Source of the DNA: Escherichia coli
Lineage (GTDB): Bacteria; Pseudomonadota; Gammaproteobacteria; Enterobacterales; Enterobacteriaceae
Direction: 5' to 3' (one strand)
NCBI RefSeq assembly: GCF_048403405.1
Contig: NZ_CP183137.1
DNA: 44,716 bases
In this document: positions 1 to 3,000 of the stretch, piece after piece
Numbering within the stretch: position 1 is the stretch's first letter
How the letters are laid out: each line of letters begins with the position of its first letter
Position numbers: made by a program

Positions 1-3000
1 AGAAACGGGCGGTTGCCCGCCCGTCTCCGTCATACTTCATCCGCCATAATGCGCCACATTGTCGACTATCCACGCAGGTCCGGTGACTTCCGGCAGCTCA
101 TCGTCATCTGTCGGGGAAGACCATTCCAGTTCCCCCCACAGCGCATCAACGAGCTCTCCGCGCTCATACAACTGCCAGCCACAGAAATCACAGCCCTGTT
201 CGGCATACCAGTGCTCCAGCGTGCAGCTGAAACGGCGGCTTAATTCTGCAATAACGTCGCTTTCCGGCTGACACCACGGCGTGTCGAAATCAACCTGAAT
301 GAAGTTGTCTTCCTGACTACTGATATTCACCTCATACCCCACAGGCCACTTCACGCCATACCGTTCCGTATACCAGTGATATGCAGAAGGAACACCGTTC
401 AGAACACCACCGTTAAAGCCATTCACTTCAACATCCAGGCGGGTCGGCAGAACCGTCAGCAGGTCAAACGGCATGGTTTTTTCCGGCAGTACGTTGTCAC
501 ACAGACGGTTCCACCACACCGATACATCCTCGTTACTCCAGAAGCCACACCAGTCACCTCTTTTTGCGGTGAAAAGTGCGGTGATGGTATCCCTGACCTC
601 ATCCGGTAATCCTTCCCAGCGACGCTGGCCAGTACCACTCTGCAGCCAGAGTTCATGCAGCATCAGGCAGTTTTGTACATCCAGTAGCACACCGTTCTGC
701 AGGTGTGTCAGCCAGCGGGTGAACGCGATATTCTCCGGCGATACAACACCACGTCCGGCAGCCGTCAGTCCGGGGCACGGTTCAAACTGCACATCTTCAG
801 TGGTCTGCAGAAGTCCGGCACTTCCGGCCAGAAACAGCTGAATACCTTCATTTGTGGCGCGGCGATAAAATGGTGTGACTGCACCGCTGGCCAGTCGTTT
901 AATCTCAGCAATCTGTGCTGGTTCACCAGAAAAATGCATACGATTTGAGCACCAGTTTGGCATGGGAATTCTCCTCTCACATGCGGCCTCCATCAGGCCG
1001 TGCCGCACCTGTAACCGGGCGACCGCATACGAATGCAGGTGCGGCCCCGAAGCCGCAGCGCGTGGAGGAGGAACGACGAAACGTGACCGGGTGAGGAGGC
1101 CGGCGACAGCGACACACTTGCATCGGATGCAGCCCGGTTAACGTGCCGGCACGGCCTGGGTAACCAGGTATTTTGTCCACAGAACCGTGCACAAAATGCT
1201 GTGGATAAGCTGGACACAGCACTCCACAGCAGGCATACAGCCACACTCTCAGAGAATTGAGCATTTTTTAGTCAGAGCAATGACATTTGACTGTGTGCGG
1301 ACTCAGTTATTAGAATGCTGTATATGCATACAGCAAAAGAAAAGGGAGATGAGAACATGATCCGCATTGAAATTCTTTTCGACCGCCAGAGCACAAAAAA
1401 ACTCAAATCAGGCACACTTCAGGCGCTACAGAATGAAATCGAACAACGTCTGAAACCACACTACCCGGAAATCTGGCTGCATATGTGGGAATCCCCGTCC
1501 TTCAGAGTGAGGAGCTGTCAACCAGCACTCCATTGACTCAAATGACGGGAAACGCGGAAATCTAAAAATTAAGCCGCACACCCCGAGAAATTTTGCAGGT
1601 TTCACGGAGCGAGACTTTTTTAGATCAGGTTTTGCATCTTCACCCTAGCCGCTTTCAGACGGGCCTGTTCACCGTCATCCTGAGAGTGTTCTGGTGAAAC
1701 TGTACTCTGAAGCCCTCCCAACGCCTTCAGTACCTCTTTTAAATCACCGGAGGAGGGTTTCCAGCCTGTTATCCTGGCAATCTGACTAATGACCTCATCC
1801 GCATTCAATTCTCTGGTGAATAGCGCGGTTAACACGGCGGGAATTCGCTCATCAAGCTGATGCATTATCAGGCCGGTTATCAAAGCCTGCCGATATAACT
1901 CCCCCCGTTTTTTCCGGGGAACAGTTTCGATTTCAGCCAGTGCAAGACAATCGGCAGAGTCCTCCGGGTGAAGGTAGAGTGAAAGTTTTTTCCTTTCTTC
2001 GCCTTCGTACATCGATTACTCCTCCGCTTTGAAGCGTGCAATAGCCTGGACCAGCGCTGTCTGAGGTTCATCCATAAGAACCACCTTTTCGCCAAGGTGG
2101 TTCCATGCCTTACGAACAGCATCAGCAATGAGTGCAGCCCCGCCACCGACAATATATACGCGGTTTACGTTTCGATACTGCAGCAAATCATCAACAACTA
2201 GCTCGCCCAGTTTATTTATCGCTGTATCAATGGTATCCAGCACCAGATTTAGTTTAGAGACCTCATTTACAACCTGCCCCACAAAATCCAAGTTATTCCT
2301 GTTTTTGATCAACTCGTCAGCAATCATTGGACTGGTATCACTGCTGGCCATTTTCAGTGCAGTGAGCGTGGCTTTCGTGACCATTGATACACCAATATCA
2401 GGATTACCATGTACAGCCGAAACATCCTCAAACTGGCCAACAATAACCCCGACATCCAGAGTTGTACCACCGAGATCGATAACCAATGATTTTTCGTACT
2501 GACCAACGTTGTCAGCAACTAGGCGAGTAAATACAGCCGGGAGTGATTCAGGCATCACTTCAACGCTTTTAATGGTAAAAGTTCCCCCTTTGTTCAGGGT
2601 GACTTCTCGCATCAGGTTGCGAATTTTTCTCTCAATGTTAAGCGTATTTTTCTGGCAGTCGGCCGTGTAAAACTCGCTGATAGGTAACGTAACGGTGAGA
2701 TCGATCTCCTGGGGTTCAATGCCACTGTTCAGTAATGCGTGGTGAACTGCCAACACATTTGTATCAGAGTACTGATACTCAATATGAGTCGTGCTGATCG
2801 CATCTTCGCTGACCGGGTCGTAGGTATATTTACGGCCATCAAGCAGATAGTTATAAGTACGACTGCTGCCTAAGCCCTCGACTTTCCAGTTATGGCGAAA
2901 AGAGTTCACTGATACCGCACTTTTCAGCGTCTTGCCTTCAAACCAGGCAAGTTTCACATTTGTAGAACCATCATCGCAAAAAATTCTCATACCATCTCCA

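Follow-up and report, generated by a model that had tools for sequence, protein, structure and literature searches.

Within a 44,716-nt stretch of an Escherichia coli contig (NZ_CP183137.1; the whole stretch, 44.7 kb, is called the window here), an ORF of 59 codons lies just downstream of a LexA box and converges on a partition locus, which raises the question of whether it is a gene in its own right or what is left of a longer operon. A sequence-only reading of the window had proposed that it is the stranded first gene of an imp-type operon still under SOS control. The impCAB operon is the SOS-inducible, plasmid-borne equivalent of dinI plus umuDC. We consider it highly probable that the locus is a decaying impCAB remnant of an I-complex (IncI1/B/O/K-type) plasmid, in which LexA would still control the promoter and the protein product would be inactive. 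The features on which this assignment is built are as follows, with positions numbered from the start of the window.

1287 to 1316, plus strand: impC (imp operon) promoter, strong and sigma-70-like, with -35 hexamer TTGACT, an 18-nt spacer and -10 hexamer TAGAAT; 10 of 12 consensus matches in a consensus scan
1290 to 1309, minus strand: second LexA-like box, a weak one within the promoter spacer (minus-strand sequence AACTGAGTCCGCACACAGTC), homologous to the second box of plasmid pTF2
1316 to 1335, plus strand: primary LexA operator, the 20-mer TGCTGTATATGCATACAGCA, whose CTGT-N8-ACAG core is CTGTATATGCATACAG at 1318 to 1333
1344 to 1348, plus strand: Shine-Dalgarno sequence GGGAG, 8 nt before the ATG, read from the sequence and kept in plasmids with an intact impC
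1357 to 1536, plus strand: chimeric 59-codon ORF (shortened impC), ATG at 1357 and TGA at 1534 to 1536; RefSeq WP_000618104.1, 'hypothetical protein'
1357 to 1484, plus strand: impC-derived part of this ORF, codons 1 to 42 and two bases of codon 43
1485 to 1521, plus strand: 37-nt scrap of an IS200/IS605-family (TnpB) right end, encoding most of the foreign tail of the ORF
1522 to 1553, plus strand: orphan flank in which the ORF ends (final four codons and stop), including CCAGCACTCCATTGACTCAAATGACGGGAAAC
1554 to 4417 (end approximate), no strand assigned: replacement stability module (stbB/parR, parM, a 124-aa ORF and parA)
1620 to 2012, minus strand: stbB/parR partition adaptor, Pfam Plasmid_stab_B at 97.9 bits
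2016 to 3011, minus strand: parM/stbA actin-like partition ATPase, longest start (RefSeq start 2990), StbA_N at 229.7 bits and ParM C-terminal domain at 148.1 bits

The LexA core, the ORF and the adjoining StbB/ParR and ParM genes all lie where the sequence-only reading had placed them or had pointed. The ORF encodes 59 residues (MIRIEILFDRQS...PALH), which comprise ImpC residues 1-41, an R42H change and then 17 unrelated residues; N15K is the sole change in residues 1-41 relative to Swiss-Prot ImpC. At the DNA level, positions 1357-1484 are collinear with impC and differ from it at 2 of 128 bases, indicating descent from a DinI-family gene. Against the Pfam DinI profile (PF06183), a failed match to which would have refuted the earlier reading by its own terms, the outcome was divided: the 59-residue product reaches only 17.7 bits where the cut-off is 24.2, its match spanning positions 3-25 of the 63 in the profile, whereas the intact parent ImpC scores 65 bits over positions 3-63. 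The fragment taken by itself is therefore borderline, and family membership stands through the parent and the DNA homology to impC. Since the profile score of the fragment is sub-threshold, the identity of the ORF was settled by homology at the DNA level, which identifies it as impC itself, the DinI-family first gene of impCAB, shortened by a breakpoint. In tblastn, the alignment to ImpC extended to residue 57; this extension simply runs on without gaps, its roughly one identity in the tail being due to chance. An upstream ATG at 1315, from which some gene callers predict a 73-aa form, was discounted: it falls within the -10 hexamer and operator, before the point where transcription is expected to start.

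The breakpoint was located by comparison with pEC16I_2, an I-complex plasmid with intact impC-impA-impB in which a DUF1281 gene is followed by impC (82 aa), a umuD-like gene (145 aa), a Y-family polymerase gene (424 aa) and convergent parR and parM. Positions 900-1484 of the window are 97.3% identical to this plasmid, in agreement with the proposal of a stranded first gene of an imp-type operon, and the match ends at 1484; compared base by base, the two sequences part between T1484 and G1485, within codon 43. Past 1484 there is essentially no similarity to pEC16I_2, apart from two short weak patches inside parM. The earlier reading had raised the possibility that an alignment to ImpC would reveal a frame-shifted C-terminus. 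A frame-shift as the cause of the short ORF was ruled out, since the DNA past 1484 bears no similarity to any of the three imp genes, whatever the frame; the rest of the operon is absent and the shortening is attributable to the breakpoint, after which the ORF runs into the 37-nt IS scrap and the foreign module. Its statement that no impAB genes follow holds for the whole 44.7-kb window, in which tblastn gave no match to impA or impB at E <= 1. The three-gene order impC, impA, impB is thus missing and convergent stbB follows the ORF, while a promoter with an overlapping LexA operator is present upstream of impC as in the intact operon.

The same base marks the limit of the homology among PLSDB plasmids. 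A PLSDB megablast with positions 1000-2100 as the query found 4,535 records sharing part of the region and only 183 sharing most of it, and with positions 1290-1625 as the query 3,619 records matched, 186 of them right through. In a spread sample of the 3,619 records, nearly all matches to the impC part end at query base 195, which is window position 1484, and they sit under genes annotated 'DinI-like family protein'; in all, the match ends at this base in about 2,400 plasmid records. Compared with the impCAB loci of I-complex plasmids (TP110, ColIb-P9/R64 type; IMPC_ECOLX), the window retains the promoter, LexA operator, RBS and first 41 codons, as well as the location between the DUF1281 leading-region gene and the partition locus. 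Unlike those loci, it lacks impC codons 43-82, impA (UmuD'-like) and impB (Y-family polymerase), and has the IS scrap and a foreign partition module instead.

The scrap at 1485-1521 matches the last 37 nt of an element found in two plasmids, from Klebsiella and Salmonella (L005 and L006), with 89% identity (E = 1e-4), and the allele of the p746 type matches the IS right end with 94.6% identity. In L005 and L006 a TnpB ORF ending ...DRDINAARNIKAAG... stops about 15 nt before the matching stretch, and the TnpB ORF of the intact element scores 86 bits against Pfam Cas12f1-like_TNB. A search with the IS right end returned copies in Klebsiella, Salmonella, Escherichia and Pantoea, and also the truncated-impC junction. 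Because similarity stops at the same terminus, ...GTCAA, in the listed copies that reach the end, and the flanks of two IS copies diverge directly after it, the impC breakpoint appears to form the left edge of the scrap and the true IS terminus its right edge. The intact copy folds into a 9-bp subterminal hairpin that is lost from the window and from p746, both of which carry mutations in its 3' arm. With right-end identity of 89-95% and a coincident terminus, the scrap thus resembles the IS200/IS605 TnpB elements of K. pneumoniae pEGKP7.2 and Salmonella pESI-like plasmids over their last 37 nt, but unlike them it has no tnpB and no left end, its hairpin is decayed and it is inert. Of the element these 37 nt are all that is present, with no TnpB ORF in the vicinity.

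The 32 nt that follow the scrap (1522-1553) occur in PLSDB only in records with the same impC junction, and no PLSDB record was found with a complete IS beside this flank, as a pre-deletion intermediate would have. A psiA origin was considered for 1522-1555 on account of a 34-nt match (88%, E = 0.01) to Klebsiella plasmids; the match is antisense and internal to psiA, and was judged to be due to chance. No Rfam family matched positions 1-6000 of the window at E <= 1. In L006, a weak match to RAGATH-18 lies just upstream of the IS right end (28.9 bits, compared with a gathering score of 44.9).

The module that begins at 1554 shares 92.7% identity with CP052164, a K. pneumoniae IncFIA/IncFII plasmid with the same stbB, parM, 124-aa ORF and parA, and shows no resemblance in DNA sequence to parMR/parA in canonical I-complex plasmids; homology to the I-complex backbone is back from 4850, in the integrase gene, at 96%. 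Both components of a Type II (ParMR/StbAB) partition locus, ParM and the ParR/StbB adaptor, are encoded here, and stbB/parR converges on the truncated impC across an 83-bp gap. These observations suggest that impC codon 43 became fused, through an ancestral recombination or deletion, to the interior of an IS200/IS605-type right end beside the foreign stbB-parM-parA genes. Such an event would have removed about 4.9 kb of ancestral DNA, comprising the 3' half of impC, impA, impB and the native partition genes, and would have spared the promoter, LexA operator, RBS and start codon. Module replacement is the simplest history, in which the crossover on the right would lie within the shared integrase gene or close to it and the join on the left would be illegitimate, inside impC and the IS end; any order of the steps (IS insertion, module swap, deletion) would likewise be a reconstruction from the present arrangement. 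Since overexpression of impCAB is toxic and causes a severe growth defect in the host (PMC10286972), loss of the operon was plausibly tolerated or even favoured.

Whether the surviving promoter is still an SOS promoter depends on the operator. The 20-mer at 1316-1335 takes in the final base of the -10 hexamer as well as the site at which transcription is expected to start, and its core begins 2 nt 3' of the -10 hexamer. The exact pattern CTGT-N8-ACAG occurs once in the 44.7-kb window compared with 0.59 expected, and at least once in 45 of 100 shuffles, so the bare pattern is statistically unremarkable and its credibility rests on context and homology. The -35 and -10 hexamers are the same in plasmids with an intact impCAB, and the operator allele of the window also fronts an intact impC in plasmid CP056922. 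In the IncI1 plasmid pTF2, impC is preceded at 21 nt by the LexA box TACTGTATATACATACAGCA, for which a heterology index (HI) of 1.60 has been published, and in a constitutive-SOS lexA mutant ImpC is increased 21-fold and ImpA 9-fold (PMC12211044). The window operator occupies the homologous position and shares 18 of 20 bases with this box, the differences being at positions 2 and 11. Among strong E. coli operators, lexA box 1 has G at position 2 and the recA box has GC at positions 11-12. A rough HI of about 5 was obtained for the window operator, similar to that of the recA box, but this value is approximate because the matrix is an approximation rebuilt from known operators and calibrated on the published table (for strong sites it gives 1.29 for 1.60 and 11.20 for 11.64). 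The sequence and position expected of a LexA-regulon operator, a palindrome with an AT-rich centre and a low HI that overlaps the promoter or transcription start, are found at this site.

The second box, in the promoter spacer, has fared less well. Its counterpart in pTF2, AACTGAATCCACACACAGTC, has a published HI of 13.49, and the threshold cited is 15 (PMC12211044). Because the window box carries two further substitutions relative to pTF2 and its rough HI from the rebuilt matrix is about 16, it is probably not functional. For the primary operator, its conservation and the data on the near-identical pTF2 promoter make LexA repression and damage induction of the window promoter very likely by analogy. 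LexA bound over the transcription start would repress the promoter until, upon DNA damage, activated RecA promotes self-cleavage of LexA and the promoter fires; translation would then yield a 59-aa chimera of ImpC residues 1-41 and 18 unrelated residues, from a plasmid that would no longer supply a translesion polymerase.

The expected fate of this chimera was assessed by comparison with E. coli DinI (PDB 1GHH; RecA-DinI complex 7YWA), with which intact ImpC aligns end to end (E = 7e-6) and whose fold it is predicted to share; the AlphaFold model of intact ImpC has a beta-alpha-beta-beta-alpha topology (pLDDT 84) with the last helix at residues 59-74. The model of the 59-aa fragment has a pLDDT of 67 and no second helix. 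The fragment has kept strand 1 and helix 1, in common with DinI, and the opening residues of strand 2, while the native strand 3 and the C-terminal helix (helix 2) are gone. According to cryo-EM and mutagenesis, L13, L21, W71, W77 and F78 of DinI form a pocket for RecA F203, E24, E69 and D76 form an acidic patch, and these eight residues matter for stabilisation of the RecA filament (PMC9926225). Five of the eight (W71, W77, F78, E69 and D76) align to ImpC residues 71-79, past the breakpoint at residue 41/42, and are lost; the positions aligned to L13, L21 and E24 are retained. Unlike DinI, the fragment therefore has no C-terminal helix with a Trp/Phe pocket and acidic patch. Since it is without the native strand 3, C-terminal helix and tryptophan/acidic patch that DinI needs for RecA, the sequence and the models indicate that the chimera is most likely inactive and degraded.

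The persistence of the ORF could nevertheless be read as a sign that the chimera is a working small protein, either a half-DinI whose helix 1 still contacts RecA or a novel micropeptide induced by SOS. The three retained key positions would fit such a role, as would the intact ORF, RBS and start in both the window and p746 alleles, the constant length of the ORF and the presence of the protein on at least 1000 contigs. However, the RecA F203 pocket cannot form without W71, W77 and F78, the other five key residues are missing together with strand 3 and the C-terminal helix, and the structure model is of low confidence. The tail originates in IS DNA that is non-coding, and there the alleles differ by three nucleotides that change two residues. 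In addition, the ImpC part of the variants in the protein cluster carries scattered non-conservative changes (I2S, G19D, Q25L, P37T), compared with strong constraint on intact impC (median dN/dS 0.001; PMC10286972). We consider a working protein quite improbable. A role for the promoter itself, whose antisense transcripts into stbB and parM might modulate partition during DNA damage, is suggested by the proximity of the convergent partition genes, 83 bp away, and by a scan that found no convincing plus-strand intrinsic terminator between 1536 and 2100; the fold of 1530-1640 is no better than that of shuffles (z = -1.2). Yet convergence is already ancestral, with impB ending 1 nt from parR in pEC16I_2, and neither conservation beyond inheritance nor supporting literature was found for such a role, making co-option very improbable. 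We give similarly little credence to the broader view that an intact orphaned SOS promoter is in use, whether through antisense transcription into stbB/parM that couples segregation to SOS or through a half-DinI peptide that modulates RecA.

Least probable of all is that the LexA box is dead or a chance motif and that the promoter is no longer SOS-regulated. The frequency of the bare pattern, expected 0.59 times per window, leaves room for chance, and relative to pTF2 the primary box has moved two substitutions away from the consensus while the second box has degraded further. Against this reading stand the positional homology to an operator with experimental support and the same allele in front of an intact impC; both substitutions are known from strong E. 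coli operators (lexA box 1 and the recA box). The rough HI of about 5 is also far under the threshold of 15 (PMC12211044). An SOS-controlled but decaying impCAB remnant thus remains the reading that we favour.

The remnant is shared by a defined group of plasmids. The identical 1484/1485 junction is present in about 186-188 PLSDB records and in 122 of 1,567 complete E. coli genomes with the impC 5' region, and the plasmids that bear it belong to at least two replicon subgroups, IncI1/B/O and IncIgamma/K1; a shared junction of this kind would fit a single old event followed by inheritance. It also occurs on p746 (NZ_CP070009) of the ETEC strain 1392/75, which from the strain name we take to be a 1970s isolate. 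Around the locus, 14 of 371 bases differ between the p746 allele and the window, and three adjacent changes within the IS scrap alter two tail residues, from RVR to RAG. Both of these divergent alleles have preserved promoter, operator, RBS and ORF intact; this could also reflect retained use, the divergence being too low to tell. More generally, the public truncated alleles (p746; WP_000618104.1 and WP_000618107.1) have the junction, the 59-aa ORF and 96-100% DNA identity around the junction in common with the window, and differ from it only at single points (N15K, RVR versus RAG in the tail, and one base next to the operator). WP_000618104.1 and WP_000618107.1, both 59-aa variants, are each found on at least 1000 contigs, and the length of the ORF is the same in all 10 of the aligned 59-residue variants (of 138 cluster members).

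Homologues of impCAB are found in >80% of 460 I-complex plasmids (PMC10286972), and the window allele is among the minority without it. The fragment thus marks an I-complex sub-lineage that has lost its plasmid-borne error-prone polymerase. Among carriers of the impC promoter region, this sub-lineage makes up about 5% of the PLSDB records and 8% of the complete E. coli genomes. A host of such a plasmid should be without the additional SOS mutagenesis and UV protection conferred by impCAB, and the 1484/1485 breakpoint with its IS scrap offers a convenient clonal marker for tracing the backbone. Beyond annotation, the importance of the locus is slight. We found no paper that explicitly describes this impC truncation, although the feature is already catalogued in databases as an ordinary, widespread and poorly labelled remnant: the names given to the 59-aa protein vary among 'impC protein', 'DinI family protein' and 'hypothetical protein', and the ORF at 1357-1536 would be better annotated as an impC pseudogene or fragment than as a DinI-family or hypothetical protein. 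In a paper on IncK2, 'impC' appears as a map landmark only.

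The canonical I-complex parMR/parA has been replaced in the window by a stability module that begins shortly downstream of the truncated impC ORF. The features at this junction are as follows.

Window 960-1290, minus strand (core about 1000-1180): GC-rich foldable region immediately 5' of the DUF1281 gene, a leading-region gene beside the impC locus
Window 1357-1536, plus strand: truncated impC ORF, 59 codons, impC-derived up to nucleotide 1484
Window 1485-1521: 37-nt decayed right-end scrap of an IS200/IS605-family TnpB element
Window 1554-4849: stability module comprising stbB/parM, a 124-aa ORF and parA
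Window 4850: return to the I-complex backbone, within the integrase gene

The replacement module is 92.7% identical to CP052164, a K. pneumoniae IncFIA/IncFII plasmid, and, judged by sequence, the lineage of the module as a whole is Klebsiella IncF-like. The foreign tail of the truncated impC ORF derives mostly from the TnpB element scrap. Examination of a Salmonella plasmid carrying a TnpB element (NZ_CP149354) identified a weak Rfam RAGATH-18 match at positions 3942-4007 of the examined locus (28.9 bits, under the gathering score of 44.9). This match sits within the TnpB element, close to its right end, and could stem from structure in the guide-RNA scaffold of that element.

On the other side of impC, the single-stranded DNA of the region 5' of the DUF1281 gene was predicted to fold at -78.1 kcal/mol, versus -53.3 +/- 4.1 kcal/mol for shuffled sequences (z = -6.0), and the region may be similar to the single-strand promoters of Frpo/ssi type that occur in the leading regions of plasmids.

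The Klebsiella plasmid CP052164 (positions 1-2839 of the locus examined) carries its own umuD/Y-family polymerase pair approximately 2 kb from stbB; this pair is without an impC-like gene and is adjoined by a group II intron.

Elsewhere in the window, two sets of sequences match pEC16I_2, an I-complex plasmid with an intact impC-impA-impB. Positions 6805-7624 are 99.6% identical to its IS26 region, and stretches within 38579-39901 are 100% identical to the sequence adjoining its Tn3-family transposase gene, part of which is present in two copies in the window. Both sets suggest that DNA associated with resistance or with IS elements was inserted into the backbone. The interval from approximately 8600 to 30000 contains an F4(K88)-like fae fimbrial operon, an S6-family (SPATE) autotransporter peptidase and several IS elements, features that show 94-97% identity to virulence plasmids. 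Since no PLSDB record covers at least 80% of window 5500-30000, the mosaic as a whole is absent from this plasmid collection.

Finally, the contigs that encode the truncated ImpC protein in public data include ones of 5.2-5.4 Mb. Among 1,750 impC-region matches in complete E. coli genomes, 22 were chromosomal. This plasmid region has therefore in some cases been integrated into the chromosome or resides in a cointegrate.
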